A stretch of DNA of 64,000 nt from an uncultured Pseudomonadales bacterium (GTDB taxonomy: Bacteria > Patescibacteriota > Microgenomatia > UBA1400 > UBA12028): positions 214,966 to 278,965 of the forward strand of contig CAZDWN010000001.1 of assembly GCA_964509365.1 (NCBI GenBank), in the 5' to 3' direction. Positions 24,784 through 55,354 of this stretch are shown here, in pieces. Made by a program: the position numbers and the translations under genes. How positions within the stretch are numbered: position 1 is the stretch's first letter; each line of letters starts with the position of its first letter. The notes beneath the pieces were generated by a model. That model worked only from the letters and a program-made list of their open reading frames with translations. It made no database searches and was not told the origin of the DNA.

Positions 24784-24824
24784 GATTCCCAGATAGTATC
24801 AAGGAAGTGACGATACATCCAGGT

Positions 24825-28600: not shown

Positions 28601-31600
28601 TTGGGATCAATAGCTCTGGATTTTTAAGTTGTGAGATTTACAATGGCTCGGGCTACCTCCCTTCTGCAGTGAGCACCGTGGCTGTCTCGACCGGTACCTG
28701 GCAACATGTCGCCTGTACTTTTGATGGGACAACTACCGCAGTGTATCTCAATGGACAGTTGGTTGGTTCAATCACCACAAGCCCACCAAAAACGGTAAAC
28801 AACGGCTCAAATTCTCTCCGGCTTGGTCATCACGTCGCGGGTACATACGGGGACTACAATGGCAAACTTGACGAGGTTCGTATATACAACCGAGCCTTAC
28901 CCATCAATGAATTGCGTCAATTATATTCCTGGGCTCCAGGGCCGGTTGGCTACTGGCCGTTTGACGAAAATACAGGCCAAATTGCCAATGATCTGAGTGG
29001 CAATGATTGGTCTGGAGACCTTGGCACGACAACTGGTGTCGATACGACAGATCCAGCCTGGGATACTGGGAAGTATGGCTCGGCACTACGATTTACGACG
29101 AGTGCCGACACCTCGGTAAACATTGGAGATGACGATGCGCTCGACGCAGATGCAAACTCGAGTATGTCTTTTGGGCTTTGGGTGAAAGTAACTGGCGTTT
29201 CTTCGTTCAATAATGACACAATCCTCATGGACAAGGAAAATATTGGCGCAGATGCGGGATTTACTTTGGCAATTGGAAATGACTCTTGCGGATCTTTTGG
29301 CCAGATTTGTGTCACCTTGTGGGATGCAGGAGCGGCGATCACCTATTCGATGCACACGACGACTACCGTACCTGATTCAAACTGGCATCATATCGCTTTC
29401 GTCTTTGATCGAACTAGTGAGACGAACACGAATATCTACCTTGATGGAGTCGTCCAGCCGGTTACTCGAACTGGTACATTTGCCAGTCTGGGAAGTCTTG
29501 CGACGACCGATGTACTCTGCGTCGGGATTGAGTCATCAGGCTCAAACTGCGGAGGACTTCATGAACTGACAGGTTCTGTCGACGATATCAAATTTTACAA
29601 TTATCCTCGGACGCAATCGCAAATCATTGAAGACATCAACGGCGGACATCCGATTGGAGGCTCCCCGGTTGCATCACAGCTTATTTATTGGAATTTCGAT
29701 GAACAATCCGGTGCAGGTACGAGCAACAAAGGGTTTGGAGGCACGACGTACAATGGGACCGCCAACGGACCGCAATGGTCAGGTATCTCCAGATCAGTAT
29801 GTAAAGTAAATGGCTGTCTGAAGTTTGTAAGCGGGACAGATTACGTCAGCGTGGCCGATGCAAACTTAGCCTCACTTGATAGTCTGGCTGGCTTTGGCGT
29901 GTCCTTTTGGATAAATCCGCAGACGATGGGCACTGATAAATCGATTCTTTCAAAAAACGATTCAGCGCAGAGAAGTTTCGCTATCGTCACCGATTCGTCA
30001 GATAACACCAAGCTACGTGTCCATATCGCTGCAAGCACTGCTGAAGCAGCAAATACGACCTACTGCACGACAGATTCCGGAGCATTGACGACGAGTGTTT
30101 GGCAGCACTTCACGATTTCCTATGATGGCTCACAATCGACTGCAGCAAATCGAGTGAAAGTCTATAAGAATGGGAGTCAAATAAATTGCTCCATGACGGG
30201 CACATTCCCTACTGCAATGACTTCGGGAAGCACCTCAGATTTGCGAGTTGGTGACGATGTTTCAGCGACATACACCGCCTTATTGGCTTTGATTGATGAG
30301 GTCAAAGTATACAATGCAGCCATATCTGCAGACCAGGCAAAACTTGAAGCAAACTACGGATCTGCTGCCGCCTACTCTACAGGCAATGACGAAGTCACGC
30401 AGATCACAGGAACTGCCGAGACTCCACCAGTCGGCTACTGGCCGTTTGATGACAACACCGGGACCACTGCCTATGACCGCAGCGGCAACAGTAATGATGG
30501 GACCTTAACAAGTTTTGTCAGTAATATCTGGGTACCAGGCAAAGTTGGCTCGAGTCTCAATTTTGATGGCGTCGATAGTCGCGTGACCATTTCCAATTCA
30601 TCGACTTTAGGAGATTTGCCAAGCAGCGGAATGACCTTATCCGCTTGGGTATATCCTCGCTCGACCGGTGAATCTGCTGGAGGTCGTATCGTATCCAAAG
30701 ACGACACCGGACCTGCTAATGGCTGGCAATGGCTGATTGAGAGTACCTCAAAGATGGAGTTTCAAGCAGATTTTACGGGTGGGACCAATACTGACCTTGA
30801 TGTGAAGACGACGGGGACACTCACACTCAATACCTGGCAACATATCGCCCTCACCTGGGATGGCTCAGCAAACGCATCAAATGTGCACATTTACATAAAC
30901 GGTGTTGAGCAAACCCATAGTACCAACACGAGTGGAGACTCAACCAGAGTCTCTGATGTGACAAAAAACTTCATGATTGGCAATGGCCAGACAGGGACAC
31001 GTACGTTTGATGGAATGATCGATGATGTCCGCGCATACAACTATGTACGGACAGCGACTCAAATTGCCTATGATTACAATCGAGGTGGTCCTACCCGATG
31101 GTACAAATTCGATGATAACGTTTCGGGAAATACTCAAACGCTCAAGGATGCGTCAGGCAATACTCTGAATGCCACTACTCATTATGGTGCAAACACGACT
31201 GGCATGGACTGCACCGCAGAGGCGAAGTTCAATAAAGGTTGTTCTCTTGACGGAGTTGATGACTATATCGATATGGCCAACACAGGTTTCCCCACTGGAG
31301 ATTTTACCTTCTCAGTGTGGATAAACCCGACAGCGACAGCGAGTTTCCCTGTTGTATATTTACCGAATGGTAGCGGCAGCTACGTCTTTGAAATACTAAC
31401 TATTAACAGCACAAATAAAATGGAACTGTCACTCAATGCAAGCGGAGTCGTTCTGGACACAAACCAGACAATTACTCCTGGTGCATGGAACCACGTCGTC
31501 TTTACTCGTTCTGGAAGCTCCATAAAAGCGTACATAAACGGAAAGCTCGACTCTGTGACTGCGACATATGGGACTGCCATGACACTAGGAAGTTGTAACA

Positions 31601-31773
31601 TCTTGATTGGCAATCTTGCTTCTTCATCGTGTGCGACTGGGTTGTCGTCTTATTATTCAGGGAAAATTGACGACTATCGATTTTTTAATTATGCGTTGAC
31701 ATTGCCTCAAGTGCAAAAACTGTATACCAACGGTTCCAGTGTGTTTTTTGGCCCAGCAACTGGGTCCCCATAA
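25669..31773 (+). CDS. secreted DUF2341 + multi-LamG (concanavalin A-like lectin/glucanase) protein, paralog 1, with long Gly-rich insertion
   Basis: Start trimmed to the ATG at 25669 (MHFFTYQRRTGHRKKSNRRVFMLALTVPIVLVLLPALYF signal anchor) because the longer ORF overlaps the divergent gene. DUF2341-type N-domain (WMDSNWRYRKTV...DLRFADSAGST..YYLE...VWVTVPSI...VYMYYGN). Repeated LamG_3 signature (W.H.A.T.DG...LY.NG....LDEVRIYNRAL...E). Ends in ...NGSSVFFGPATGSP. Confidence 0.8.
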   Translation: MHFFTYQRRTGHRKKSNRRVFMLALTVPIVLVLLPALYFGLKRAFPAKAAWMDSNWRYRKTVAIVNNGSTQTSYQVMVPVDTYTLINAGKMKSDCSDLRFADSAGSTMGYYLEYCVNTASSGNSVVWVTVPSITGSATTNVYMYYGNGSASAVSAFTSAPTGIDIGSGADGNIAIAADTNINTADSINTGTARACSDTTGGDAVIYTTGVNAVAGNTSVNVATAVSSSCLNSGDEVIIIVLSGANSGKFEFNRVTSTPSGNMISLSHALVNSYNGAAEKVVVQRVPNYANVTTSGTANFTPSAWNGTSGGVMMFRASGNVVVAASTAIHSNFLGSNGGTFGNAGSGGAAGGSGGTAGTSGSSGVTGSGNGGGVLATAPGTGGNGGANGSNTASLGNIPGGGGGGGGGGGGGGAYGTAATGGTAGSAGGNAGNGTSTASYAGAKGNAGQAGAAGSTYGNTNFTTSNANLYLGSGGGSGSGGGGGGGADLFLAATGGTGANGGRGGEGGNGGGIVGIFANAIINNGNIGSNGQNAAASNGGNAGVAGSGNSAGGGGGGGGGGGGGGGSGGSIWLSANSVTLGTSKVVANGGTAGVGGGAGAGGTCGSGANDGGGGGGGGNTGGAGGTTSCLNAGTAGTTAASSGNGGSGGQGRIFQQYNSNSGTTSPAASGVQLPVAAAPTSEESVTSSANVEAVNWKFDEGYGTTTADSMSNATTATLAGAALPTWATEDQCISGKCLYFGGVSSKLTVANPILVSSISFWIRPITTASSAFFDFGGGTVTIKSDASSNLTTTGFTGATMYLNGAACTTCTLVANRWQHIAVISTAAITSTSSMTVATATQFYKGYMDEVRIYSSTVTASQILSEYTSRGSINGTSVQTGQASQAFLSDGLAAYWKLEESSTSSADSTNNGMTGTWNGAPAVATGKFGKAISFSGTPTAYVNVLDNTILDPSYITIAAWINPTSGTDRLLVAKDVSYTFGINSSGFLSCEIYNGSGYLPSAVSTVAVSTGTWQHVACTFDGTTTAVYLNGQLVGSITTSPPKTVNNGSNSLRLGHHVAGTYGDYNGKLDEVRIYNRALPINELRQLYSWAPGPVGYWPFDENTGQIANDLSGNDWSGDLGTTTGVDTTDPAWDTGKYGSALRFTTSADTSVNIGDDDALDADANSSMSFGLWVKVTGVSSFNNDTILMDKENIGADAGFTLAIGNDSCGSFGQICVTLWDAGAAITYSMHTTTTVPDSNWHHIAFVFDRTSETNTNIYLDGVVQPVTRTGTFASLGSLATTDVLCVGIESSGSNCGGLHELTGSVDDIKFYNYPRTQSQIIEDINGGHPIGGSPVASQLIYWNFDEQSGAGTSNKGFGGTTYNGTANGPQWSGISRSVCKVNGCLKFVSGTDYVSVADANLASLDSLAGFGVSFWINPQTMGTDKSILSKNDSAQRSFAIVTDSSDNTKLRVHIAASTAEAANTTYCTTDSGALTTSVWQHFTISYDGSQSTAANRVKVYKNGSQINCSMTGTFPTAMTSGSTSDLRVGDDVSATYTALLALIDEVKVYNAAISADQAKLEANYGSAAAYSTGNDEVTQITGTAETPPVGYWPFDDNTGTTAYDRSGNSNDGTLTSFVSNIWVPGKVGSSLNFDGVDSRVTISNSSTLGDLPSSGMTLSAWVYPRSTGESAGGRIVSKDDTGPANGWQWLIESTSKMEFQADFTGGTNTDLDVKTTGTLTLNTWQHIALTWDGSANASNVHIYINGVEQTHSTNTSGDSTRVSDVTKNFMIGNGQTGTRTFDGMIDDVRAYNYVRTATQIAYDYNRGGPTRWYKFDDNVSGNTQTLKDASGNTLNATTHYGANTTGMDCTAEAKFNKGCSLDGVDDYIDMANTGFPTGDFTFSVWINPTATASFPVVYLPNGSGSYVFEILTINSTNKMELSLNASGVVLDTNQTITPGAWNHVVFTRSGSSIKAYINGKLDSVTATYGTAMTLGSCNILIGNLASSSCATGLSSYYSGKIDDYRFFNYALTLPQVQKLYTNGSSVFFGPATGSP

Positions 31774-31774
31774 T

Positions 31775-34700
31775 ATGATTTGGCAAAAAAAATATTCCCA
31801 GCGCAAAAATCCAAATCGTCGACTCTATGTCTTGGCGGCTACCCTTCCTCTACTCTTCATATTGATTCCAGCAATCTATTTCGGCCTGAGGTTTGCCAAT
31901 CGTACACGAGCAGTCTGGATGGATGACTCTTGGCAATATCGAGTGAAAGTCCCAGTGACTGCGCATACAGGAGCCGAGACAAATAAATACTTTACGAAGA
32001 CCGTCGATACATCTGACACTACTCGATTCCAAGCGGATTGTGGTGACATACGGTTTACCGATGTCGGCGGAAAAATACTCTCATATTACATTGCATCAGG
32101 GTGCAGCAGTGCGAGTACCGTCATCCATGTACTTGTGCCAGACTTCACTGCTGGAGCCACTGATTACTACATGTATTATGGGAACCCAAGCGCGCCAGAT
32201 GGATTCTCAGCAAGCGACTTCACTGCTGGCTCTCTTGTCACGGTCGGAACTTTGGGAGGTGAAGAAAAAGGAGTTGGGCCGGTTGCGTATTGGTCATTTG
32301 GTGACGGCAATGGGACGACTGCTCAAGATGGCACAAATAATAATAATGACGGAACCTTGAGTAACGGTCCTACTTGGAAAGCCGAGGGAGACTGCATCTC
32401 TGGCAAATGCATCTCTCTTGATGGAACTGATGACATCGTCACGGTCACCAACTCGACTGCTATAGACTTAGACGCTACTGGAGGCCTGGCATCCGGATTT
32501 ACTGTTGAAGCTTGGATCCGGCCAAACGGAGCTGGCGAAGGAACCGGTGGACAAATCTTCTTCAAAGGTACGAATACTTGGTTGAAAGTGACCAATCTTA
32601 CGAGTGGTCTGCTTGATCTCTCTGCCAGTGTTGATCTGGCCACCACTGATGCGACGTTGACTGCATCTGCCAAAGTGACAAACAACCAATGGACCCATGT
32701 TGCTTTGTCATACACAGATGATGGCGACGATGAGATTACGATTTGGGTCAATGGTGTCTCCGTCGGCAGCTCGACGAATGGAGTTGGCTCTTTGGCAACG
32801 GACACCAACAACTTTGTGATCGGAGGGACGACGACCAATAACTTCGCCGGAAGCATTGATGAAATGAAGATTTACAATGCCGAAAGAAGTGCAGCGCAAA
32901 TGAGAGTTGATTATAATTCTCGAGGCGGTATGACTGCCTCTTCAACTGTCCAAGGTACTGGTAACGCACGTTCACTCTCAAATGGACTGGTCGGATATTG
33001 GAAAATGGACGAAGCGAGTTGGGCAACTGACTGCTCGACTGCGTCAGTACTCGACTCTTCGGGCAATGGCAACAACGCTCGCCCATGTCCAAACGCCTCC
33101 GCCGCGACACAAGGAGTCGGCAAGTTTGGAAAAAGCGGTAGTTTTGACGGCACAAACGATTATCTTGAGATACCGACAGCGACAAGTTTGCATCCGGGTG
33201 ATACGTTTACGCTCTCTGCCTGGGTGAAGCGCAGCGGCACTGGGACGTTCGATGCGATTCTTGGGACCGGTGCAGATGATTTTCAGTTAGCTTTTGTAAA
33301 TGACAACATCAAATTGTCCAGACAATCCACCTCAGATGTATTTGTTAGCACCAGTACCTATACCGACACCACAAACTGGCATCACATCGTTGCCTCCAAG
33401 AACGGATCAACTTCAGCAACTGTCTATGTTGACGGCCAACCCATAGCAGGTACGTACACCAATCAGACTATCATCGCTGGTTCAAGTTCGGTGTACATCG
33501 GTGGCGATGGGAACGGAGCCGACATTCTTGCAGGGTCGATCGACGAAGTGCGTATCTATAATCGAGCTCTTTCGCCGGCGGAAGTAAGCCAACTGTATGC
33601 ATCAGCTCCTGGGCCGGTGGCGTATTGGAAGCTCGATGACAATACCGGAAGCAGCGCGATTGACTCGAGCGGCAACACAAACACTGGATCGTTGGGAGGA
33701 GCACTTTCATGGACCCAAGGGAAACTTGGAGGCGGCGTCACCTACCCCACTGCAGGCGGCACCTGTATTAGTGCCGGCACAGGAGCCAGTATTACGAATC
33801 TCCCTTCCCTCACCATTTCTGCGTGGATAAAACCGACGAGTGAAGGATCTGATAGTGGAGTTGGCCGCATCGTCGGGAAAGACCCTGGATATTCTTTTTT
33901 AGTTGGCGACACCGCACCGGTCAACACGACAAATGGATTGACATTTACCAAAGGATACGCCACTACTGAGCTCAAAGTACAGTCTGCAAATAATGTGTGG
34001 ACTGCAAATACTTGGCAGTATGTGACCGTAACCTGGAATGGAAGTCAAACCGCCTCGACAGCGGTCAAGATGTACGTCAATGGCGTTGAGACGACGTATC
34101 AAACACAACAAAATGGAGTCGGATCGACCAGCTCAGATGTCAATGGTCTAGCCATTGGTGCCTTTAGTGCTGCCTCATGCAACTTTGCCGATTTTGAGGG
34201 AGCTCTCGACGATGTAAAGATCTACAACTACGCTCGTACGCCTTCGCAGATCATTGAAGATATGAATGGAAGTCATCCAATCGGAGGCTCGCCAGTAGGC
34301 TCCCAACTCATCTACTGGAATATGGATGAACAAGCGACAGCGGTGATAAATAACACAGGATCAGGAGGATCGACTTATAATGGATCGGCGAATGGTCCCC
34401 AATGGTCCACGATCACCGTTCCAAGCTGCAAAGTAAACGGATGTCTTTACTTTGACACTGCAGCAGATTATACGAACACGTCACTTGGAACCATACTGAA
34501 TGGAGCATCCGCATTTGCGACTTCTTTGTGGATCAAACCAACTTCGCTTGCCGGCGGCACAATGATTGTTTCAAAAGCAAACACCACGACGCAGCGGGCA
34601 TTTCAGATCCTTGAAGACTCAGCGAACACTAACTCCGAAATCAAAGTCATGATTTCATCGATTGCAAGCGATACGAGTAATTATTGCATTACGAACGGGT

Positions 34701-36319
34701 TTGGTTTATCTACGACAGCTTGGCAACATCTCAGTGTGAGTTACGATGGATCTCAGCCAACTGGTGACAATAACCGAATCAAAGTGTATAAAAATGGTTT
34801 CCCTATCCCCTGTGTAGTGACTGGCACCATACCGACTAGCCTGCCCGCCACAACCAGTCTACTCAAACTTGGTCAAGGTGATGACACGACTCCAAACTCA
34901 GTCACAGCGTATATCGACGAATTCAAATTCTATACCGTGCCACTTTCAGCCGATCAAGTGAAAATCGAAGCAAATTATGGTGCATCGACGGCGTACTCGA
35001 CTGGAAGTGATGAACCGACGCAGATCACTGGCACGGCAGAGACAGTCGGAATTGGATATTGGCCGTTTGAGGAAAACAGCGGAACGCTGGCAAGTAATAA
35101 ATTTGGCACATCCTATGATGGTACTCTCAACAACTCACCGACGTGGATGCAAAGCTCCAACTGCAAAGTCGGTCACTGTCTCTCGTTTGCGAGTGCAAGC
35201 AGCCAAGATATATCTGTTGCGAATACAGTTCTTGGTATCAAGACCGTCTCATTTTGGGCAAAGCCGACATCGACAACTACGAGCCTTCTCCAACTACAGG
35301 CGAGCGGTGCTGTGGCAATCACTGCTACTGCCGGAACACTTTCAGCGACGGGCTTTACGAGTCCAACCATCTACGTGAATGGATCACTGAGCTCGACCAT
35401 AGTCGCCAATGTCTGGCAATACATCACTGTCACGACTGGTACGAGCATTTCGGGATCTGCAGTCAAATTTGGACACGTAAACGCTACGTATTACGACGGT
35501 CAACTGGATGAAATCAAGATGTATAACTATGCTCGTACCAAAGCGCAAGTGAACTATGACTACAATCGTGGAGCTCCGATTGGCTGGTGGCAATTTGACG
35601 AGTGTCAAGGTTCGAGTGCGTTTGATGCAAGTGGAAATGGAAGTACAGCCACCTTGACGTATGGAGGTGGGACATACACGCAAGTGGGCACGTGTAACTC
35701 TGGGACAAGTTCCGATGCCTGGTATGGAGGTGTATCAGGTCGATTCAATGGTGGCATCGCGATTGACTCAACCACAGATACGATCAACGTCGGGAATGTG
35801 AGTCTCTATTCATTTGACCGTACTGATCCATTTACGACATCAATTTGGTTTAAGACATCGACATTGCAGTCATCGACATTATTTTCAAAACAAGACAGTA
35901 GCGCCCCTTTTAGCGGATGGAATATCCAGACAGATAATACGGGAAAACTCTATTTTCAATTCGTAAACACGTACAGTTCAAATATTTTAGAACGACGGAC
36001 AACTAGCGCAGTTGCCTATACGGATGGCAACTGGCACAACGTTACTACGACGTATGACGGTTCTAGTTCCCCTTCCGGTGTCCACATCTATTATGATGGA
36101 AATGATCAAGTGCTGACGACCGATTTTAATAGCTTGAGTGCTGCTACAACAAATTCAATATCAGTCTACATTGGTTCGCGAAATGGAACGGCGCAAAAAT
36201 ATTCTGGACTTCTTGATGATGTTCGCTTATACAACTACGCGTTAAGTAGCAGCCAAGTAAAGAAACTTATTATCAATGGCTCATCGATAAATTTTGGCCC
36301 CGCGATAGGATCACCGTAA
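31775..36319 (+). CDS. secreted DUF2341 + multi-LamG protein, paralog 2
   Basis: ATG at 31775, one nt after the paralog-1 stop (taatATG). Signal anchor RRLYVLAATLPLLFILIPAIYFGL, DUF2341 domain and multiple LamG_3 repeats (IDEVRIYNRALSPAEVSQLY and others). Ends in ...NGSSINFGPAIGSP. Confidence 0.8.
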   Translation: MIWQKKYSQRKNPNRRLYVLAATLPLLFILIPAIYFGLRFANRTRAVWMDDSWQYRVKVPVTAHTGAETNKYFTKTVDTSDTTRFQADCGDIRFTDVGGKILSYYIASGCSSASTVIHVLVPDFTAGATDYYMYYGNPSAPDGFSASDFTAGSLVTVGTLGGEEKGVGPVAYWSFGDGNGTTAQDGTNNNNDGTLSNGPTWKAEGDCISGKCISLDGTDDIVTVTNSTAIDLDATGGLASGFTVEAWIRPNGAGEGTGGQIFFKGTNTWLKVTNLTSGLLDLSASVDLATTDATLTASAKVTNNQWTHVALSYTDDGDDEITIWVNGVSVGSSTNGVGSLATDTNNFVIGGTTTNNFAGSIDEMKIYNAERSAAQMRVDYNSRGGMTASSTVQGTGNARSLSNGLVGYWKMDEASWATDCSTASVLDSSGNGNNARPCPNASAATQGVGKFGKSGSFDGTNDYLEIPTATSLHPGDTFTLSAWVKRSGTGTFDAILGTGADDFQLAFVNDNIKLSRQSTSDVFVSTSTYTDTTNWHHIVASKNGSTSATVYVDGQPIAGTYTNQTIIAGSSSVYIGGDGNGADILAGSIDEVRIYNRALSPAEVSQLYASAPGPVAYWKLDDNTGSSAIDSSGNTNTGSLGGALSWTQGKLGGGVTYPTAGGTCISAGTGASITNLPSLTISAWIKPTSEGSDSGVGRIVGKDPGYSFLVGDTAPVNTTNGLTFTKGYATTELKVQSANNVWTANTWQYVTVTWNGSQTASTAVKMYVNGVETTYQTQQNGVGSTSSDVNGLAIGAFSAASCNFADFEGALDDVKIYNYARTPSQIIEDMNGSHPIGGSPVGSQLIYWNMDEQATAVINNTGSGGSTYNGSANGPQWSTITVPSCKVNGCLYFDTAADYTNTSLGTILNGASAFATSLWIKPTSLAGGTMIVSKANTTTQRAFQILEDSANTNSEIKVMISSIASDTSNYCITNGFGLSTTAWQHLSVSYDGSQPTGDNNRIKVYKNGFPIPCVVTGTIPTSLPATTSLLKLGQGDDTTPNSVTAYIDEFKFYTVPLSADQVKIEANYGASTAYSTGSDEPTQITGTAETVGIGYWPFEENSGTLASNKFGTSYDGTLNNSPTWMQSSNCKVGHCLSFASASSQDISVANTVLGIKTVSFWAKPTSTTTSLLQLQASGAVAITATAGTLSATGFTSPTIYVNGSLSSTIVANVWQYITVTTGTSISGSAVKFGHVNATYYDGQLDEIKMYNYARTKAQVNYDYNRGAPIGWWQFDECQGSSAFDASGNGSTATLTYGGGTYTQVGTCNSGTSSDAWYGGVSGRFNGGIAIDSTTDTINVGNVSLYSFDRTDPFTTSIWFKTSTLQSSTLFSKQDSSAPFSGWNIQTDNTGKLYFQFVNTYSSNILERRTTSAVAYTDGNWHNVTTTYDGSSSPSGVHIYYDGNDQVLTTDFNSLSAATTNSISVYIGSRNGTAQKYSGLLDDVRLYNYALSSSQVKKLIINGSSINFGPAIGSP

Positions 36320-36320
36320 T

Positions 36321-39300
36321 ATGTTGTGGCATCACAAGAAATATCAGCGCAAGAGTAACCGGCATCTCTACGTTTTGGCCGCGACACTTCCCTTGCTTCT
36401 CATCTTGATCCCTGCGATTTACTTTGGATTACGCTTTGCCAATCGAACCCAAGCAGTCTGGATGGATGATTCCTGGCAATATCGAATTAAAGTCCCAGTG
36501 ACTGCTCACACAGGAGCCGAGACAAATAAATATTTCTCGGCCACATTTGACACATCTGACACTACAAGGTTTCAGTCCGACTGCGGAGATATTCGCTTTA
36601 CTGACCTGAAAGGGAGGATTTTGCAGTATTACATTGCCTCAGGCTGTAGCAGTGCAAGCACCGTTATCCATGTACTGGTGCCAGATTTTGCCATCAATGC
36701 CACTGACTATTATATGTACTATGGAAATCCCAATGCAGCGGATGGCTTCTCAGCGAGTGACTTTAGCGCTGGCACGGGTGTGACGATCGGGACACTTGGA
36801 AGTGAAGAGAAGACGACTGGACCCTATGCGTACTGGGCGTTTGACGAAGGCACGTCGACGATCGCTCATGATTCTGCCTCTGGTCGATATGATGGCACAA
36901 TTACAAACGGCCCTATCTGGAGAGATAGCAACCTCTGTATCTCCGGAAAATGTCTTTTTTTTGACGGGACCAATGATACTGTAACCATTGGAAATATCGC
37001 CGCTCTCAATTTTGAAAAGACAGATGCGTTCTCCATCTCGACGTGGATTCGTACAAACAATCCAGCAGCAGCAAATATCATTTCCAAACAAGCTAATATT
37101 GCCCCGTTTGCTGGCTGGAATTTGCAGACTGGCGGATCAGGAAAAATTATTTTTCAACTCGCCAACACCTACAGCTCAAATACGCTCGAGGTCGTTACGA
37201 CAAATGACATGGCGTATTCAGATAACAAATGGCATCACGTCGAAGTCACGTATGATGGTTCCAATACACCCGCAGGAGTTAATCTGTATTTTGACGGAGT
37301 CGCCCCTGCCATGACCACCACCACAAATACACTCTCGGGTTCAATCGCCAATTCATCAAGTGTTGAGATCGGCTCAAGAAATGCTGCTGGCAATTTCTTC
37401 AAGGGTGAGATCGATGAAACAAAGATCTATAAATCAGTTCGATCGGCCGCGCAAGTGCGTGCAGACTACAACTCCAAGGGTGGCTCTCGTTTAACTGGGA
37501 GCGTTCAAGGTGGAGTCGACAACGTTGCCTTGAGTAGTGGCCTTGTCGGATACTGGAACATGGATGAGGCATCCTGGAACAATAACTGCTCAAGCCAGTC
37601 AGTGACCGATCTCTCTGGCAACATCAATGCGGTCAAGAGTTGTCCAAATACAACTGGACCGACTGGAGGTGCCGCGGGGAAATTTGGCAACAGCGGGAAC
37701 TTCGATGGGACGAATGATTACCTAGATGGCGGCGATGATACAGACTTTGAATTTGGAAGTGCGACTTCAGAGATGACACTTGCCGCTTGGGTCAATCCGA
37801 CGACAATCACACCTGCTGCCGCGATGACAATCGTGAGTAAATATAATTCCACTTCAAATCGAGAATACATTTTTCAGATGTCGACGAGTGGCAAATTGAC
37901 GTTGACTCTTTCAGGTGACGGTGCGAGCGTGACTTCGCTTTCAAGTACGTCGTCAATGACTGCGAGCACGTGGCAACATGTCGCCGTGACGTTTGCTGCC
38001 TCGACGGGCACAGTCAGATTTTATATCAATGGAGTGTTGGATAAAGAAGGCACGATTGCGATTTCACCTATTTTTACAGGTACTGCCCTCTTTGAGATCG
38101 GAGCGACGAATAAGAGTGGGACGACACCTGACTTGTTTTGGAGTGGGAATCTCGATGAGGTACGAGTGTACAAGAAGCTTTTGTCACCTGGAACGATAAG
38201 AAGTCTGTACGCATTCGCCCCTGGCCCACTCGGGTACTGGCCACTTGATGAGCATGCGGGTACATCGGCATCAGACTTAAGTGGCAATTCTCTCACCGGC
38301 ACCGTCACAAATGGCCCAGTATGGACGGCTGGGAAATTTGGCTCCGCACTGACGTTTGATGGCTCCGATGACAACGTAAATATCGGAAACACCATTGATC
38401 TTTCAGGAAACAAACCGATGAGCCTGTCGGCATGGATCTATCCGACAGCGACACCAGGGGTGAATGGCGCAGGAATCATCTCAAAATATGATCGAGGAAA
38501 TGCTGGTGAATGGAGATTGTTTCTTAATTCTTCTCGGCAAATTCAAATGTTACGAGAATGTGGAGGGTTTGGAATTGTCAGCACAACCGCAGTCACCCTC
38601 AATACGTGGACTCATGTGGAAGGATCTTATGACGGAACGAACTTGAGGATCTATTTGAATGGAGTTTTGGACAAGACTACCGCAGACAGTTGTTCCGTGA
38701 GTAGTACCGCAATCGAAGTCATCATTGGGGCCGGAGATAACGGATCAGGCGTGGAAGACGTTTTTACTGGCAGCATTGATGATGTACGCATGTACAGTTA
38801 TGGGAGAACTGCGTCACAAATTACAGAAGATATGAATGGAGGACATCCGATCGGAGGATCTCCAGTCGGTTCGCAAGTCAGTTATTGGAATATGGATGAA
38901 ACCAATGGGACGACTGCTCGAGATACATCCGTCAACGCAAACAACCTGACGTTATCAACTGCTTCATGGACACGATCAGGGAAAACCAATTCAGCCTGGA
39001 ATGGTGTAGGGACAAACTGGCTCTCTCGCGCCGATGATGACGATCTTGATTTCTCGGCGGCAGAAGATTTTACGCTCTCACTCTGGTTCAAATCAGATTC
39101 AGCTAGTAATCCCGCGGCCACTGAATACTTGATGTATAAAGCTCCGTCAGGGGCTAGCAATGGTGGATATGGATTGTATGTCAATACGTCGGGCCAGCTT
39201 TGTTTTGGCATTGACGATGACAATACATCCTTCCCTGAGGATTCCTCTTGCTCCACTGCAGACTTTTATGATGCCACGTGGCATCACGTGCTTGCGATCA

Positions 39301-40967
39301 AGACTGGCACGTCAAAAATTCAACTCTTTGTGGATACGAGACCACAAACTGCAGATGTGAGCATCTCATCCACTGGGACACTAGCAAACACTTCTACGTT
39401 TTATCTGGGAGATAAAGATGGGACAGACAATGGCGATGAGCTCAATGGAGATCTCGACGAAGTAAAGATCTACCGGTCTGCACTGACAAGTGAGCAAGTT
39501 GCCATTGATTACAATGCGGGAGCTTCACTCAACTACGGAGTCACAGCGACAAGTGAGAGTACACAAATCACTGGTTCAGCCGAAACTGGACCCATCGGCT
39601 ACTGGCCTATGGATGAAAAAAACGCGTCAACCGCAAAAGATATGTCTGGCAACGGAAGAGACGCTACGCTCAATGCGAATTTTACGTTCGATAGTGACTC
39701 TGGATGGACTCAAGGAAAGCTCGGAAGTGCAGTTCATTTTGATGGGACCAATGACGTCATGCAAGTGATCTCGACGGCATACAACTTGGTCGGCAGCGGA
39801 GATTTTACGATCGAAAGTTGGGTCAAGCTCGATACGATTAGCTCTTCCGTCAACTCGCGTATTTTGACGTTCCAACAAGACGCTTCAAATGGCTACCATT
39901 TTGCGGTTGTCAGTAGCGCCAGTGGGACATGTGGAAGCCGGTTCTTATTTGAAGTTGATAAAGCAGCCACGTATCATGCCAGCGGCTGTTCATCGAGTAA
40001 TCCACTAGCTGTAGTCAATACGTGGTATCACCTCGTCGGCGTCTACAATGGGACTACCAATGTAGCGACATTGTATGTCAATGGTATCCCTCAAGTTGCC
40101 GGCTCCAACGTCACACTCGGTCTTGGCGTCGCTGGTCGATTATCTTGGGCCAGTCAATCGACTGCCGGGACGAACCTCATGGATGGAGTCATCGATGAAA
40201 CGAAAATTTTCGATTATGGCCGGACGCAGGCTCAAGTCGCCTATGACTATAATCGCGGGGCTCCACTTGGGTATTGGCAACTCGATGATTGCCAGACTTC
40301 GACAGCTCGCGATGCGAGTGGCAATGGTTACAATGGCACACTGACGATCGGAGGATCGGGGACTTCGGTGGTTGGAACTTGTAACACCTCATCTTCTGCC
40401 TGGGGCAATGGCTCGACAGGAAAAGTAAATTCTGGACTTGGCCTGGACGGTACCGATGACTTTGTCGACGTTTCCGATACCTCAAACATACGATTTGATG
40501 CTGCGACACAAGACTTTTCAGTTTTTGCCTGGGTAAAACGTGGAGCTACGGGCGCGGAAATGGACATCGTGAGTAAAGAAGATGCTGATAACGACGGGTG
40601 GAGACTTGAGTTCACCAGCAGCAACACCGTGAGGTGTAGTGTGAACTCAATCGATGTTGATAGCACACAGACGATCACTGATACGACCACTTGGCACCAT
40701 GTGGGATGTAGCGTTTCGCGCGCAGGAAATGGTCAAGTGTATATTGATGGCAAACCATCTGGTAGCGCTACGGCGATTTCCTCAACAGCCATGGCGACGA
40801 CCGCTGGACTTCGTTTTGGGGCACGCTCGTATACAGTGGCAAATTATTTCAACGGAATTCTCGATGATGTGAAGCTCTTCAATTATGCTTTGACACTTTC
40901 GCAAGTACGGACCATCTTTAATGGCGGTGGTGGTGTCAATTTTGGCCCATCTACGGGACAACCGTAG
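36321..40967 (+). CDS. secreted DUF2341 + multi-LamG protein, paralog 3
   Basis: ATG at 36321, one nt after the paralog-2 stop. The first approx. 130 aa are nearly identical to paralog 2. Multiple LamG_3 repeats. Ends in ...GGGGVNFGPSTGQP. Confidence 0.8.
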   Translation: MLWHHKKYQRKSNRHLYVLAATLPLLLILIPAIYFGLRFANRTQAVWMDDSWQYRIKVPVTAHTGAETNKYFSATFDTSDTTRFQSDCGDIRFTDLKGRILQYYIASGCSSASTVIHVLVPDFAINATDYYMYYGNPNAADGFSASDFSAGTGVTIGTLGSEEKTTGPYAYWAFDEGTSTIAHDSASGRYDGTITNGPIWRDSNLCISGKCLFFDGTNDTVTIGNIAALNFEKTDAFSISTWIRTNNPAAANIISKQANIAPFAGWNLQTGGSGKIIFQLANTYSSNTLEVVTTNDMAYSDNKWHHVEVTYDGSNTPAGVNLYFDGVAPAMTTTTNTLSGSIANSSSVEIGSRNAAGNFFKGEIDETKIYKSVRSAAQVRADYNSKGGSRLTGSVQGGVDNVALSSGLVGYWNMDEASWNNNCSSQSVTDLSGNINAVKSCPNTTGPTGGAAGKFGNSGNFDGTNDYLDGGDDTDFEFGSATSEMTLAAWVNPTTITPAAAMTIVSKYNSTSNREYIFQMSTSGKLTLTLSGDGASVTSLSSTSSMTASTWQHVAVTFAASTGTVRFYINGVLDKEGTIAISPIFTGTALFEIGATNKSGTTPDLFWSGNLDEVRVYKKLLSPGTIRSLYAFAPGPLGYWPLDEHAGTSASDLSGNSLTGTVTNGPVWTAGKFGSALTFDGSDDNVNIGNTIDLSGNKPMSLSAWIYPTATPGVNGAGIISKYDRGNAGEWRLFLNSSRQIQMLRECGGFGIVSTTAVTLNTWTHVEGSYDGTNLRIYLNGVLDKTTADSCSVSSTAIEVIIGAGDNGSGVEDVFTGSIDDVRMYSYGRTASQITEDMNGGHPIGGSPVGSQVSYWNMDETNGTTARDTSVNANNLTLSTASWTRSGKTNSAWNGVGTNWLSRADDDDLDFSAAEDFTLSLWFKSDSASNPAATEYLMYKAPSGASNGGYGLYVNTSGQLCFGIDDDNTSFPEDSSCSTADFYDATWHHVLAIKTGTSKIQLFVDTRPQTADVSISSTGTLANTSTFYLGDKDGTDNGDELNGDLDEVKIYRSALTSEQVAIDYNAGASLNYGVTATSESTQITGSAETGPIGYWPMDEKNASTAKDMSGNGRDATLNANFTFDSDSGWTQGKLGSAVHFDGTNDVMQVISTAYNLVGSGDFTIESWVKLDTISSSVNSRILTFQQDASNGYHFAVVSSASGTCGSRFLFEVDKAATYHASGCSSSNPLAVVNTWYHLVGVYNGTTNVATLYVNGIPQVAGSNVTLGLGVAGRLSWASQSTAGTNLMDGVIDETKIFDYGRTQAQVAYDYNRGAPLGYWQLDDCQTSTARDASGNGYNGTLTIGGSGTSVVGTCNTSSSAWGNGSTGKVNSGLGLDGTDDFVDVSDTSNIRFDAATQDFSVFAWVKRGATGAEMDIVSKEDADNDGWRLEFTSSNTVRCSVNSIDVDSTQTITDTTTWHHVGCSVSRAGNGQVYIDGKPSGSATAISSTAMATTAGLRFGARSYTVANYFNGILDDVKLFNYALTLSQVRTIFNGGGGVNFGPSTGQP

Positions 40968-41022: not shown

Positions 41023-43116
41023 ATGCAAGGCAACTCATCCTTTTCCCTGAAAAACACATTCTCTTTCCTCTCTATCGCAGTTGCACTCGGCGTAGTCGCA
41101 CTACTCCCCGTCTTGTTTTTTCCGTTCATTCCAAATTTATTTGACACTGCAAAATACTCAATGGTGATCATCGTGAGTTTGCTCATGGTCATCGCATTTG
41201 CGGTCTTCGCAGTCCTTCGTCGTTCACTCGAAGTGTCTCGTTCCCTCGTGACCGTCGGTTTTGGGCTTCTCTCGCTCTCGACTGTCATTTCAATAATTCT
41301 TTCCAGTCCAAATAAATATGAAGCCATGACCGGATCAGGCGTCTTCTTCTTGTGTCTTGGGCTTCTGTATATCGTTCTCGCGACGAGCATTAAAAAAAGA
41401 TTCACTACTTCCCTCGTCATTGCGATGGGTGTTGGCGGTGTGTTGATCACTCTCTTTTCTATACTTGAGAAAGTCGGCGCAAATCTTTTCTCATTGTTTG
41501 GACTCAACGGCACCACCGTCATGGGATTGTTTCCAAATGGTGGCAGCTTGATCAACTTCTCACTACTGCTGATCATTTTGGTGACATTAGTATTGTCCGC
41601 GATCACTCAGAAGCAAGTGGTGACTCGAGCAATCTCGATCGCGCTCTCCGGAGTCGTCGTCCTCGGTCTCATCCTCAATGGAGTGAATCTCTTACCTGGA
41701 AGTGCCCAAGCTCCTGTATTGCTTCCGTTCAGTGCAAGCTGGAGTATCGCCTTGGATGTGTTGAAGACTCCTCGCACGGCTTTAGTTGGAGTCGGTCCAC
41801 AAGGCTACGTCCAAGCGTTCAGTTTGTTTAAGCCAATAGCGCTCAATAACACGCCATTCTGGGCTGTGCGATTTGGAGCCGCTCACAACGTCCCACTTGA
41901 TATCATTGTCACACACGGAGCCATCGGAGTTGTCGCATTGGCGCTGATTCTCTTGGGTATTCTCGCAAAAGTGAAATCCACGCGAAAGCAAGATCTTCCT
42001 CTGCTTGGTGGTGTCGCGATCAGCGTCCTGATTTTCCTCCTCATCCCTGCAGGACCAGTCCTCTGGGTACTGCTTGCAGTGCTGCTCGTTGCGTGGAATG
42101 CTGCAAACGCAGAGTCGTTGGTGGATGGCAGTGAAGACACTTCGACATTTGTGCTCTTGAGCGCGCATAGTAAGACTGGCAAAGATGAGAAACATGTATC
42201 GACGGGCATCATTGCCGTGATCGCTCTCCTATTGATCGGAGGCTCGCTCTTCGGCTTGTACTTCAATACTCGCTCACTGGCATCTCAAATTGTGTATGGA
42301 AAAGCGCTTGAAGCGATCCGTACCAACAAAGCAAAAGATGCGTATGATTTGATGCGCACCGCGATCACGATTGCTCCATATCATGAAGATCTGCGCCGCA
42401 CCTTCTCTCAGATCAACCTGTCGATCGCCCAAGGTCTCACCCAAAATAAAGATTTGAGCGATGAGGACAAAAAGACTGCGATCACCTTGATCCAACAATC
42501 GATCAATGAAGCAAAAGCTTCAGTGGCTCTCAACCAAACCGAGTCTTCAAACTGGCTTTCACTCGCTATCGTCTATGACAATTTGATCGGTGCTGCCAAA
42601 GAGGCCGATCAATGGACAGTAGCCGCGTATACGCAAGCGATCATTCGAGATCCAGCCAACCCACGCACTCGCGTTGATTTGGGAGGCGTGTATCGTAAGT
42701 TGAAGAGTGACGACCAAGCAAGTCGACTCTTTGAGCAAGCAGCTCAATTGAAGCCTGACTATGCCAATGCCTACTTCAATATGGCAAGTATCGCCCAGTC
42801 ATTGGATCACAAAGATCAGCAGTTGGCACTGCTCAAGAAGACCCTCTCACTGTTGGATCCAAAAGACCCTCAGTATGCACAGGTCAAAGACATCGTCGAC
42901 AAGCTTGATACCGAAGTCCAAGCAGCCGCGAAAGATTCAAAGACTGGCACGCCAACTGCAACGCCAAGGCCGACGGCGACACCAGTCCCGGCTGACGCGA
43001 CAGCGACAAGTAGTGCAAAGGCAAAGATTGAATTGCCACCGGATGCTGGGATAGCGAGCAACTCCGCTTCTGTCCCACCAGTCCCGACCGCATCTCCAAA
43101 AGCGGCGACACAGTAA
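41023..43116 (+). CDS. O-antigen ligase (Wzy_C) family membrane protein with C-terminal TPR repeats and Pro/Thr/Ala tail (WaaL/PglL-like)
   Basis: 697 aa. About 12 TM helices. Wzy_C signature loop (LVGVGPQGYVQAF...FWAVRFGAAHNVPLDIIVTHGAIGVVAL). Then an approx. 250-aa TPR-like helical region (KPDYANAYFNMASIAQSL...) and a TPTATPRPTATPVP tail. Confidence 0.7.
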   Translation: MQGNSSFSLKNTFSFLSIAVALGVVALLPVLFFPFIPNLFDTAKYSMVIIVSLLMVIAFAVFAVLRRSLEVSRSLVTVGFGLLSLSTVISIILSSPNKYEAMTGSGVFFLCLGLLYIVLATSIKKRFTTSLVIAMGVGGVLITLFSILEKVGANLFSLFGLNGTTVMGLFPNGGSLINFSLLLIILVTLVLSAITQKQVVTRAISIALSGVVVLGLILNGVNLLPGSAQAPVLLPFSASWSIALDVLKTPRTALVGVGPQGYVQAFSLFKPIALNNTPFWAVRFGAAHNVPLDIIVTHGAIGVVALALILLGILAKVKSTRKQDLPLLGGVAISVLIFLLIPAGPVLWVLLAVLLVAWNAANAESLVDGSEDTSTFVLLSAHSKTGKDEKHVSTGIIAVIALLLIGGSLFGLYFNTRSLASQIVYGKALEAIRTNKAKDAYDLMRTAITIAPYHEDLRRTFSQINLSIAQGLTQNKDLSDEDKKTAITLIQQSINEAKASVALNQTESSNWLSLAIVYDNLIGAAKEADQWTVAAYTQAIIRDPANPRTRVDLGGVYRKLKSDDQASRLFEQAAQLKPDYANAYFNMASIAQSLDHKDQQLALLKKTLSLLDPKDPQYAQVKDIVDKLDTEVQAAAKDSKTGTPTATPRPTATPVPADATATSSAKAKIELPPDAGIASNSASVPPVPTASPKAATQ

Positions 43117-43143
43117 GAGCGTTGAATAGTGAAAAAAAAGAAA

Positions 43144-43172
43144 GGGGCGCACCTACTCGGACGCCCCTTTTT
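43144..43172 (+). terminator. Rho-independent terminator after the ligase gene
   Basis: GGGGCG stem / 12-nt loop / CGCCCC followed by TTTTT (aaaggggcgcacctactcggacgcccctttttc), 28 nt after the stop. Confidence 0.7.
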
Positions 43173-43515
43173 CATGTTCATTTCCAAGCCTTTGCACGCA
43201 GACACATACATGCTCAGCTTGATGAATTGCTGCCGATTTTTGGCCAAAAGCGAGCTTCCTTCTATCCAAGAATCTCCACTGACCGAATGAATCCTACGTG
43301 TCATTTGGAGGCGGTTTTGGTAAACATATCCAACTATCTAATACTATATAAAAAAGCATCGCTTTTTCTTATTTCAAACCAATCACTCGAGGTAATTCTG
43401 CCACGGTATCAAAATACCTAACACTATATAAATAGACATCATTTCCGTAGTCAGCCATCTTCATTTTGGCAAGTCTCTGAGAGTCAAAATTTAGGAGGAT
43501 TGGGATGGATGACGA

Positions 43516-43728
43516 GTGTTTGTACCTCTCCTTTTGGCCACGTGTATAATAGAAACCATGGCCTACAACTCTCCCTACCAACCAAATGCAGATCGAAATG
43601 AGCTCAGGAGAATTGGAATGCAAGCCGGCGAATCGGCATTGCGCAACATCATTATTTGGAGTTCGCAACTTATCAAGTTTGTGGTGCAGTTTGTGATCGA
43701 CGCGATCAAGCAAGTATTGGGACAGTAG
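43516..43728 (+). CDS. small hypothetical protein (70 aa from a GTG start; 56 aa if the ATG at 43558 is used)
   Basis: ORF-track entry (GTG start) ending ...IIIWSSQLIKFVVQFVIDAIKQVLGQ. A separate perfect SD (AGGAGG at 43493-43498) precedes a 14-codon mini-ORF (ATG 43505) in another frame. The true start is uncertain. Confidence 0.25.
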   Translation: MFVPLLLATCIIETMAYNSPYQPNADRNELRRIGMQAGESALRNIIIWSSQLIKFVVQFVIDAIKQVLGQ

Positions 43729-43736
43729 TGAGCGTG

Positions 43737-44298: not shown

Positions 44299-45588
44299 TC
44301 AATCTTGAGATTCGATGATTTGATTTCGAAGAGTATCCAATCCCTCACCCGTGCTGCTACTGATCCAAAATACGCCTTTTACGGCCTTGCTCATTTGCGT
44401 CAGGATTTCAGATTTTCGCTCTGGCGTCAAAAGATCTGCTTTTGAGAGGACAATGATTCGTTCCTTTTGAGAGAATGGGATCGAAGAGTTTGTTGCTTCC
44501 TTCTCGTACGTTTCAAGCTCATTTTCAAGGGTTTTGAGCGAGAATTGATACTGATCACAAATAGTATTCACTTCACTCATATCATCAAGCAGTATCGCAT
44601 CATCCATTGAGAGCAAAAATATGAGCATTTTGCAGCGGCTGACGTGACGCAGGAATTTTATGCCGAGGCCTTTGCCTTCACTGGCACCTTCGATTAAGCC
44701 TGGGATATCTGCGATCACGACAGTTTTTCGATCAGCCACATCGCCACTCTCGACCATCATGACTCCCAAGTTTGGTTCGAGGGTCGTGAATGGATAGTTA
44801 GCGATTTTTGGAGTCGCTTTCGTGAGTACAGAAAGCAGCGTGCTCTTTCCAGCGTTCGGGAAGCCGACAAGTCCGACATCGGCGATGAGTTGCAATTCAA
44901 ATAGGAAATCGCCTTCCTCTCCCCCTTCGCCCGTTTGGGCTTCCATTGGAGTGGTGTTGCGACTGCTCTTGAAGCTCTCATTCCCTTTGCCGCCTCGACC
45001 ACCTCGGGCAATGGTGACTTCCACACCTTCCTCTGTAAGATCTTCGACCAGCACGACGTCATAGGTTTGGCCGCCGTAATTGAGTGTCGCTTTGTCACCT
45101 TTGATGGCCGTGACTTGTGGGGCCTGCGTGTCTTCGTCATTGACGCTCACGGCATACGGATCACCTGCCAGAGTAAACACACCTTCTCGTTCGCGAATGA
45201 TGCTACTAGCCCGACGTTCGATCGGTCGTTCGACGCGGCCAAGCTCTTGGTCGTTTTTGTACATCATCTTCGGCTTGTTACGGACGTAGGTACTGATGAT
45301 GCGCCAGACTCGAGTCCCAATTGGGAGCTTCACGACCACATTTTCCTGGTCTTTCCCGTGCATATTGGTGACCCCACCCATTTGTCCATTATCTGCTTCT
45401 ATGTTTGATATACCCGCAAAATTACGCAGGGTGTTTTCATGGCCAGTACCAACGACGATGACACTGCCACCATTTCCGCCATCACCACCATCTGGACCCC
45501 CTTTGAGTGTCCGACGGTTTCGGAAAAATGAGATGCGACCATCTCCCCCTTTCCCTGCGCTAATGTGTATTTTGACGAGATCAACCAT
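44299..45588 (-). CDS. obg: GTPase Obg/CgtA (with large insertion in the N-terminal Gly-rich Obg fold; no C-terminal OCT domain)
   Basis: Start at MVDLVKIHISAGKGGDGRISFFR (the upstream in-frame extension lacks homology). GGPDGGDGGNGGSV and ARGGRGGKGN Obg-fold glycine motifs. G1 GLVGFPNAGKST, G3 DIPGLIEGA. About 80 extra residues between the Gly-rich strands. Confidence 0.85.
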   Translation of the reverse strand: MVDLVKIHISAGKGGDGRISFFRNRRTLKGGPDGGDGGNGGSVIVVGTGHENTLRNFAGISNIEADNGQMGGVTNMHGKDQENVVVKLPIGTRVWRIISTYVRNKPKMMYKNDQELGRVERPIERRASSIIREREGVFTLAGDPYAVSVNDEDTQAPQVTAIKGDKATLNYGGQTYDVVLVEDLTEEGVEVTIARGGRGGKGNESFKSSRNTTPMEAQTGEGGEEGDFLFELQLIADVGLVGFPNAGKSTLLSVLTKATPKIANYPFTTLEPNLGVMMVESGDVADRKTVVIADIPGLIEGASEGKGLGIKFLRHVSRCKMLIFLLSMDDAILLDDMSEVNTICDQYQFSLKTLENELETYEKEATNSSIPFSQKERIIVLSKADLLTPERKSEILTQMSKAVKGVFWISSSTGEGLDTLRNQIIESQD

Positions 45589-45657
45589 ATGCGTATTGTA
45601 CCAGAGATTGCTTCCCTTCTCCTTGACAAACTTCTTCACCGTCTTTAGGATCAGAAT

Positions 45658-46089
45658 ATGTCCGATAGCGCATCGAATGCGTCCAAAAATCCTCCAAAAA
45701 CAATCCTCATTATTGACGATGATCGGTATAATCGTGATTTCTATCAAGAGTTACTCCAAGATAATGGCTATGTGGTCGATACAGCAGAAAACGGTCTCGT
45801 CGGCTACGAAAAGATGAATACCTCTCCCCACTACGATATTGTGCTCCTGGATATCGTCATGCCGACCAAAGACGGGATGGAGACCCTTACCGATCTCAAA
45901 GCCCGTCCAGATATTCGTGAAAAGCATGGTCCGATTTATATGCTCTCGGCACTGGGCCAAGATTCTGTAGTGGAGAATGCAAAAGAACTTGGAGCGGCTG
46001 GCTATATCGTGAAGACCGATATCACGCCAGATCAATTTTTACGAAAGATCAAAGAGCTTATCCCTACCTCTCCTACTTCCCAAGCCTAA
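45658..46089 (+). CDS. single-domain response regulator (CheY-like receiver)
   Basis: 143 aa. ILIIDDD...DIVLLDIVMP..DG...KHGPIYMLSALG receiver-domain pattern (Asp pocket, phospho-acceptor Asp, conserved K region). Divergent from obg. Confidence 0.8.
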   Translation: MSDSASNASKNPPKTILIIDDDRYNRDFYQELLQDNGYVVDTAENGLVGYEKMNTSPHYDIVLLDIVMPTKDGMETLTDLKARPDIREKHGPIYMLSALGQDSVVENAKELGAAGYIVKTDITPDQFLRKIKELIPTSPTSQA

Positions 46090-55326: not shown

Positions 55327-55354
55327 AGGGCAGTATGTCTAACGATGATTCTGT

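Follow-up and report, generated by a model that had tools for sequence, protein, structure and literature searches.

WsfB, the S-layer O-oligosaccharyltransferase (O-OTase) of Paenibacillus alvei, and PglL, the general O-OTase of Neisseria, each join a Wzy_C domain to C-terminal tetratricopeptide repeats (TPRs) (PMC2943079). WaaL and PglL share a triad, which comprises R215, R288, and H338 in Escherichia coli WaaL and R224, R298, and H349 in PglL (PMC3643930). In CmWaaL, R191 and R265 bind the phosphates of undecaprenyl diphosphate (Und-PP), while H313 activates the acceptor; other families of clan GT-C1 swap the His for Asp/Glu and vary the basic residues (PMC10920833). Homologues of pglL adjoin pilin genes, outside lipopolysaccharide (LPS) loci, in 21 of 31 cases (Schulz et al., PMC3643930). 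TfpW, a pilin oligosaccharyltransferase (OTase) of Pseudomonas aeruginosa, is encoded beside pilA and has 11 predicted transmembrane (TM) helices, its N-terminus in the cytoplasm, and, in the periplasm, a TPR domain for which OGT is the closest structural match; pilin adjacency is the genomic signature of both tfpO and tfpW (bioRxiv 10.1101/2020.04.19.049825). Here, we examine a gene at positions 41023..43116 of a 64,000-nucleotide stretch of DNA (hereafter, the window) from an uncultured bacterium of the Patescibacteria, or Candidate Phyla Radiation (CPR), that encodes a 697-residue protein of comparable layout.

CPR/Patescibacteria account for a large share of bacterial diversity and attach to hosts via type IV pili and huge surface proteins, and almost nothing is known about surface modification in these organisms. 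Reports describe them as having neither LPS nor lipid A synthesis nor an outer membrane, with type IV pili being widespread (PMC10221324, PMC6744442). The nearest species-level genome to that of the window is a Candidatus Woesebacteria metagenome-assembled genome, at 50% identity. We find that the membrane domain of the window protein is almost certainly a homologue of the Wzy_C superfamily in which the textbook triad is not kept, and we tentatively propose a role in glycosylating surface proteins.

Gene and Domain Layout

The preliminary description of the window had read the gene as an O-antigen ligase (WaaL/PglL) family member with a TPR tail. The open reading frame (ORF) it marked is exact from ATG to stop, and an identical protein (P0001) is found in the public protein collection on a 326-kb NCBI contig. 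Minus-strand ORFs overlapping the gene are short and unsupported. An AlphaFold2 (AF2) model of the 697-aa protein, built from a 139-sequence alignment, reached a pLDDT of 91.4 and a pTM of 0.90; a 7-sequence alignment gave a pLDDT of only 47. The gene and its domains are as follows.

41023..43116, plus strand: gene for a divergent, predicted Wzy_C-superfamily protein; complete ATG-to-stop ORF, 697 aa
41023..42276, plus strand: membrane domain, aa 1-418; 11 TM helices (aa 3-418) in the AF2 model, cytoplasmic N-terminus
41692..41889, plus strand: large external loop, aa 224-289, between TM7 and TM8; conservation across three family alignments
42331..42942, plus strand: external TPR domain, aa ~437-640; 12 helices, ~6 hairpins, by Pfam, PDB, and Foldseek
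42943..43113, plus strand: disordered C-terminal tail, aa ~641-697; Pro/Thr/Ser/Ala-rich, pLDDT 44-65

The short loops predicted to lie inside carry 11 Lys/Arg per 49 residues and those predicted to lie outside carry 1 per 47. From this excess, the N-terminus lies in the cytoplasm and loop 224-289 lies outside, together with the TPR domain and the tail. The loop spans 66 residues with short helices in the AF2 model and is the most conserved block of the protein, featuring W240, D245, K248, G256-x-G258-P, K270-P271, N275, W280, R283, and H288-N289.

The TPR assignment in the preliminary description was borne out by both sequence and fold. At aa ~437-640, the Pfam models TPR_17, TPR_19, and TPR_11 all score above their cut-offs; a search of PDB sequences retrieved the TPRs of OGT and SPY, and Foldseek matched the fold to CTPR, SPY (SPINDLY), OGT, and MamA. 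Across the family, the domain is conserved as strongly as the loop, and the positions kept in at least 90% of members include Y441, A469, W511, Y518, P544, P547, and K577. The pTM of the model implies that the TPR domain is rigidly oriented relative to the membrane domain.

The Pro/Thr tail is likewise present, at aa ~641-697 and with low pLDDT. Pro, Thr, and Ser make up 47% of the last 60 residues, compared with a family median of 35%. A tail motif, ELPxDAGIAS.SA..P.VP, is kept among the seven closest homologues and not in the wider family. We considered ELPPDAGIAS as a sortase signal and rejected it, as neither a TM segment nor a basic tail follows. The preliminary description had further suggested that the TPR domain and tail recruit protein substrates; both are extracytoplasmic, so recruitment is possible, and the role itself is one that we infer.

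Homology to the Wzy_C Superfamily

The profile search that the preliminary description had recommended for Wzy_C and O-antigen_lig returned TPR families only at E<=1. The description had itself named the lack of a Wzy_C match as a sign against its reading, and by that standard the family assignment would fail; the more sensitive searches below overturn this outcome. PDB sequences, searched with the single protein, a 7-sequence profile, and a 31-sequence membrane-domain profile, yielded no WaaL and no credible membrane-protein match. For the full-length model, the best 50 Foldseek matches in the PDB were TPR proteins alone.

Relatives of the protein were gathered in two steps. A word-indexed search found 7 close homologues, all of 688-703 aa except for one 497-aa fragment. 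An exhaustive hidden Markov model (HMM) search with the membrane domains of these homologues then reached 1,832 clusters (each a representative at 50% identity) with a threshold of E<=1e-3, of which 161 passed E<=1e-30, and its top matches are nearly all 650-740 aa long. When 72 family members were scanned singly, TPRs were detected in 71 and Wzy_C (PF04932) in 12, with a best E of 6.1e-11. A 31-sequence profile of the family membrane domain alone (A5) reached PF04932 proteins named "O-antigen ligase family protein" by NCBI/JGI, including a Ca. Shapirobacteria example at E 9e-21; proteins so named scored 43-93 bits against a PF04932 gathering score of 31.7 bits. Ten A5-found proteins were tested and all ten gave a Wzy_C match (1.1e-06 to 2.2e-26), nine of them above the Pfam gathering cut-off and one, P0158, marginally short of it at 29.0 bits. 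Finally, hhalign of A5 against a profile of five TPR-less Wzy_C proteins that pass the Pfam cut-off (A6) matched 303 columns, from TM1 up to and including the catalytic loop (query aa 7-322), with 99.45% probability and E 4.8e-22.

Superfamily homology, which emerges from the transitive matches and the A5-A6 alignment only, is well supported, and on this sequence evidence the membrane domain is almost certainly a Wzy_C-superfamily homologue. By its alignment to the motif W..A...G.G...F...AHNEYLQ..G..G, loop 224-289 is the predicted counterpart of the Wzy_C catalytic loop. The O-antigen-ligase assignment thus stands at the superfamily level alone, as there is no direct profile match and the triad is not kept. 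Overall, the preliminary description had observed the gene largely correctly, and its interpretation is partly supported.

Public annotation labels family members "hypothetical" or "TPR protein". For instance, P0012, from a Patescibacteria group bacterium, is annotated as a hypothetical protein, and the TPR-bearing relative P0169 is called TadD by JGI.

Genomic Context across Relatives

The following features of the window, together with the giant ORF at 3872..20320, define the context of the gene.

25549..31773, plus strand: LamG giant 1, 2074 aa; DUF2341 and Laminin_G_3 (Pfam)
31739..36319, plus strand: LamG giant 2, 1526 aa; DUF2341 and Laminin_G_3 (Pfam)
36321..40967, plus strand: LamG giant 3, 1548 aa; DUF2341 and Laminin_G_3 (Pfam)
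20411..25568, minus strand: divergently oriented glycosylation module; glycosyltransferase family 2 (GT2) protein, C-methyltransferase, and two large membrane proteins, one with DUF6541 (Pfam, NCBIfam)
44299..45747, minus strand: Obg GTPase (Pfam); conserved downstream syntenic marker

We inspected the loci of about 14 relatives. LamG giants lie directly upstream on the same strand throughout the window clade (L001-L007, 43-100% identity). Farther out, 2-3 small prepilin genes (GFTLIELLVV...) adjoin the family gene in L007, L013, L015, L016, L017, and L020, that is, in 6 of the 8 informative mid-to-distant loci; the last five of these encode members with about 25-35% identity to the window protein. 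L018 is without pilins, and L019 is too short to judge. In L020, a GT2 gene adjoins the family gene as well. Beyond the prepilins, the distant loci carry a giant ORF (>2,000-4,600 aa), with Obg, LysM-M23, Rho, sortase, and RadA on the other side; Obg adjoins or is near the family gene in L001, L002, L013, L015, L016, L017, and L018.

The window retains this backbone in the form of the giant at 3872..20320, the family gene, Obg, M23, Rho, sortase, and RadA, with the LamG triad and the glycosylation module filling the slot of the pilins. No prepilin motif occurs in the 64-kb window or in the closest relatives. The LamG giants, which the preliminary description had stressed as neighbors, are kept down to 43% identity, but the wider family has prepilins in that place, leaving the giants as one candidate acceptor.

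One locus holds an additional element. In L016, a bAvd/23S_rRNA_IVP gene (12105..12467, minus strand) lies between the family gene and the pilin genes. As bAvd is an accessory protein of diversity-generating retroelements, its gene hints at such an element acting on nearby surface proteins in L016.

Proposed Function and Catalytic Residues

We tentatively propose, from sequence and context, that the window protein is an enzyme that O-glycosylates surface proteins in a monoderm CPR bacterium, in the manner of PglL, TfpO, or WsfB. The predicted extracytoplasmic transferase would draw on a sugar or glycan linked to polyprenol phosphate and transfer it to Ser/Thr (or Tyr) residues of surface proteins that the cell secretes. 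In most family members, the likely acceptors would be type IV pilins, and the membrane-anchored, Ser/Thr-rich LamG giants would be further acceptor candidates in the window clade. Loop 224-289 would be the site over which the rigid external TPR domain positions the acceptor protein. The data show the ORF, its topology, its homology to the superfamily, how large the family is, and that the neighborhood is conserved; from these we infer catalysis, which donor and acceptor are used, and what the TPR domain does.

This proposal is supported by the conserved external loop, which matches the WaaL/PglL topology, where the conserved residues are also external (PMC10920833). The CPR lineage and the association with pilins strengthen it. 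Kinship with PglL, as put forward in the preliminary description, gains from the precedent of WsfB and PglL for a Wzy_C domain combined with TPRs, and loses from the undetected PglL_A and the lost triad; an O-OTase role is a plausible and reasonable hypothesis. Literature searches returned no paper linking CPR, O-antigen ligase, and pili, or linking Patescibacteria and pilin glycosylation.

To locate the triad, we chained alignments from E. coli WaaL to A6 and from A6 to A5, the family profile compared with the single E. coli WaaL sequence giving no significant hhalign result (0.2% probability). A6 scores weakly against E. coli WaaL (E 0.006); even so, the Arg of the A6 "SRG" motif, an invariant Arg, and the His of "AHNEYLQ" fall exactly on WaaL R215, R288, and H338. 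WaaL H338 maps to H288 of the window protein, within the H288-N289 pair that aligns with the invariant AHN of A6.

Several observations weigh against the proposed glycosylation role. First, hmmscan against Pfam and NCBIfam (E<=1) found TPR families only and no direct match to Wzy_C, O-antigen_lig, PglL_A, or Wzy_C_2. Second, WaaL R215 faces a 17-column gap in the family profile, and R288, the Arg about 50 residues ahead of the His, corresponds to position 236, where the 139 members have F/Y/L/W/P/V. Third, position 288 is His in just 3 of these 139, the window protein included, with Ser in 77, Arg in 19, Thr in 15, and Ala in 15; in the closest relatives, it is mostly His and once Arg. Fourth, neither the window nor the flanks of the relatives' loci contain a priming phosphoglycosyltransferase, Wzx, or other genes for assembling Und-PP-linked glycans. 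Lastly, adjacency to pilins and giants may exist without functional coupling: pilin adjacency is weak evidence for coupling because the whole block, including Obg, Rho, and RadA, is syntenic.

The window protein, by its alignment, is not a canonical WaaL or PglL, since the triad is not kept. Loss of the triad does not prove loss of activity because other GT-C1 families also replace the His. An alternative set of external residues is maintained among the 139 members, with K44 kept in 135, W240 in 132, D/E245 in 127, K/R248 in 128, G256 in all 139, G258 in 138, a basic residue at K/R270 in all 139, P271 in 136, N275 in all 139, W280 in 136, and G299 in all 139. The G256-x-G258 motif stands 30-32 residues ahead of position 288. 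The chemistry probably depends on other residues of this set (K44, D/E245, K/R248, K/R270, and N275), and the donor may differ from that of WaaL and PglL.

A broader version of the glycosylation proposal is speculative and, taken as a whole, unlikely. It would make the window protein the founding example of a CPR-wide enzyme family of at least 1,800 clusters that retains the WaaL/PglL fold, has replaced the diphosphate-binding Arg pair and the catalytic His with a new external site, has gained a rigid TPR domain that binds the acceptor, has perhaps switched donor, and is dedicated to pilins and giant adhesins. The new site would consist, equally speculatively, of K44, W240, D/E245, K/R248, K/R270-P271, N275, and W280, and the donor may be among the polyprenyl-monophosphate sugars that the neighboring GT2 could make. 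If true, the pilins and giant adhesins by which episymbiotic CPR attach to hosts would be subject to dedicated glycosylation. Even under the narrower proposal, glycosylation of pilins or giant adhesins would reveal that monoderm, ultra-small bacteria without LPS share a conserved system for modifying proteins with glycans, and that the WaaL/PglL fold can work without the textbook Arg/Arg/His.

Alternative Explanations

A less likely but serious alternative is a Wzy-type polymerase or ligase of a cell-wall or capsular glycopolymer, in which the TPR domain is a scaffold for chain length or export. The protein would join Und-PP-linked repeat units or place the finished polymer on a wall or lipid acceptor. 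The variability of Wzy_C/clan GT-C1 polymerases accords with this alternative: Asp/Glu may stand in for His alongside 1-2 Arg/Lys (PMC10920833), and the family keeps D/E245, K/R248, and K/R270. Sugar genes are also at hand, as the window has its glycosylation module close by and GT2 stands beside the family gene in L020, and TPR scaffolds are known in polysaccharide export, according to ref. 99 as cited in PMC2943079. However, none of the about 14 loci holds Wzx, Wzz, a priming transferase, or a cluster of repeat-unit glycosyltransferases. The recurrent neighbors are pilins and giants, not sugar genes, and the fixed, housekeeping-like position differs from the variable loci typical of wzy.

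It is improbable that the protein is a noncatalytic or repurposed membrane scaffold, its Wzy_C fold no longer active as a transferase, that through its external TPR domain assembles, anchors, or stabilizes type IV pili or giant adhesins, like the TPR proteins PilF, PilW, and TadD. This explanation would account for the family-wide loss of the three canonical catalytic residues, the tight adjacency to pilin genes, the JGI name TadD for the relative P0169, and the failure to find donor-synthesis genes nearby. Conservation points the other way. The loop is the most conserved part, with G256, N275, and G299 invariant, K/R270 basic in 139 of 139, and W240, W280, P271, and K44 each kept in at least 95%; such loop conservation is typical of an active or ligand-binding site, and other GT-C1 families are also without the His (PMC10920833).

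We rejected the conventional role of WaaL, the ligation of O-antigen to lipid A-core. Superfamily homology alone favors it, and it is very unlikely, as the preliminary description had expected in the event that LPS genes are absent: the CPR/Patescibacteria lineage is reported to have no lipid A, LPS synthesis, or outer membrane (PMC10221324; PMC6744442), the 64-kb window holds no LPS genes (Lpx, Waa), the Arg/Arg/His triad is not kept in the family, and a sortase with its LPATG substrate points to a monoderm wall.

Neighborhood of the Gene in the Window

As the preliminary description had stated, the gene lies directly downstream of the three LamG ORFs, with 55 bp separating the third giant from its start codon. 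The gap contains no terminator- or promoter-like site, scan counts being equal to those of shuffled controls, and co-transcription of the LamG giants with the Wzy_C-like gene is plausible from the sequence. Each giant has 5-6 Laminin_G_3 domains and a Ser+Thr content of 22-24%. The three share an N-terminal Lys/Arg cluster followed by a signal-anchor helix (...LYVLAATLPLL.ILIPAIYFGL...). They also end almost identically (...NG..V.FGP..G.P*), without an LPXTG or prepilin motif; this shared ending may serve as a signal for sorting or recognition.

In the glycosylation module, the best matches of the GT2 protein are weak and are to polyprenyl-phosphate (monophosphate) sugar synthases; the GT2 and methyltransferase genes also occur in L001. 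The listed ORFs of the two large membrane proteins at 20411..23511 (minus strand; 550 and 516 aa) share ~100 nt. DUF6541 matches the C-terminus of one, and the other has no Pfam or NCBIfam match; these two are what the preliminary description called the "GT-C pair", a putative assignment. Its notion of two lipid-linked transfer chemistries in the locus stays conjectural, with no priming phosphoglycosyltransferase or Wzx in the window. The ABC exporter of the window is of a generic MsbA-like type.

The giant at 3872..20320 (plus strand) is a 5,482-aa ORF with 28% Ser+Thr and an N-terminal excisionase/MerR-like helix-turn-helix (HLSIQEAAHILKVSEKTLRRWEDKNILVPIRTAGGHRRYT). Such a DNA-binding-type N-terminus is odd for a presumed surface giant. 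In L013 and L017, the giants in the corresponding slot have a Phage_int_SAM_1 match.

Downstream of the Wzy_C-like gene, the ~620 nt between its stop codon and the first tRNA gene (43117..43735) contain no supported ORF and no Rfam match. Two tRNA-Ala genes (cgc, minus strand, 43736-43807; ggc, plus strand, 44222-44293) flank a diacylglycerol (DAG) kinase ORF. The mechanically assigned GTG start of this ORF (43736) overlaps the first tRNA-Ala, and its Pfam match sets in only at aa 45, so translation probably initiates downstream of the listed GTG.

Besides DAG kinase, Obg, Rho, and RadA, the window encodes LysM-M23, a sortase, and an LPATG-terminated DUF11 protein. At 54010..58057 (minus strand), the sortase adjoins this 900-aa DUF11/DUF7601 protein, which ends in LPATG, a hydrophobic helix, and KKKGL. 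This ending marks it as a classical substrate of sortase, consistent with a monoderm wall.

Comparison with Known Systems

WaaL (CAZy GT121; structure 7TPG) and the window protein belong to one superfamily. Both have a long external loop, located toward the C-terminal part of the membrane domain, that bears the conserved residues (PMC10920833), and they share the motif G-x-G ... H-N-x-x-L ... G-x-x-G. No WaaL came up when PDB sequences, a set that should contain 7TPG, were searched with HMMs. The two differ in that the lipid A-core acceptor of WaaL is absent in CPR, whereas the window protein has a fused TPR domain. Furthermore, both Und-PP-binding arginines are missing in the family and the His is missing in 98% of it, and WaaL has 12 TM helices (PMC10920833) compared with 11 in the window protein.

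The Wzy/BP-Pol polymerases (clan GT-C1, CAZy GT122-135) resemble the family in their extreme divergence around a common fold, and their variable outer-face catalytic residues (PMC10920833) recall D/E245, K/R248, and K/R270. These polymerases reside in polysaccharide clusters with Wzx and Wzz, while the family is fixed beside pilins, giants, and Obg and carries TPRs.

Among the pilin OTases, TfpW has a TPR domain that, like that of the window protein, matches OGT. It is nonetheless a GT-C_A/ArnT-like enzyme with a DDX motif and a polyprenyl-P-arabinose donor and not a Wzy_C relative. TfpO/PilO differs in having no TPR domain.

WsfB and PglL, compared through their published descriptions, have the same order of domains as the window protein, namely a multi-pass Wzy_C-superfamily membrane domain followed by an extracytoplasmic C-terminal TPR region. 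Both act outside LPS biosynthesis, WsfB doing so in a monoderm, and pglL homologues are commonly beside pilin genes (PMC3643930), as in the wider family. The differences lie in detail. A direct match to Wzy_C or PglL_A is missing for the window protein, and the triad R224/R298/H349 is not conserved in its family; PglL_A (PF15864) is absent from it at E<=1 and from the 25 most frequent families among the 72 scanned members. The window protein also has 11 TM helices, lacks the R215-bearing segment, and carries a longer, 6-hairpin TPR domain and a Pro/Thr tail. The G316-x-G318 motif of PglL, reported as PglL-specific, is matched by G256-x-G258, but the generic A6 profile also has it, which makes the motif nondiscriminating. 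The architecture, and with it the idea of an O-OTase-like Wzy_C domain joined to TPRs, was already known. What is new is a very large subfamily, centered on CPR and in effect without annotation, whose conserved site is rewired, whose membrane domain has 11 TM helices, and whose genes occupy a fixed genomic position beside pilins and giant surface proteins.

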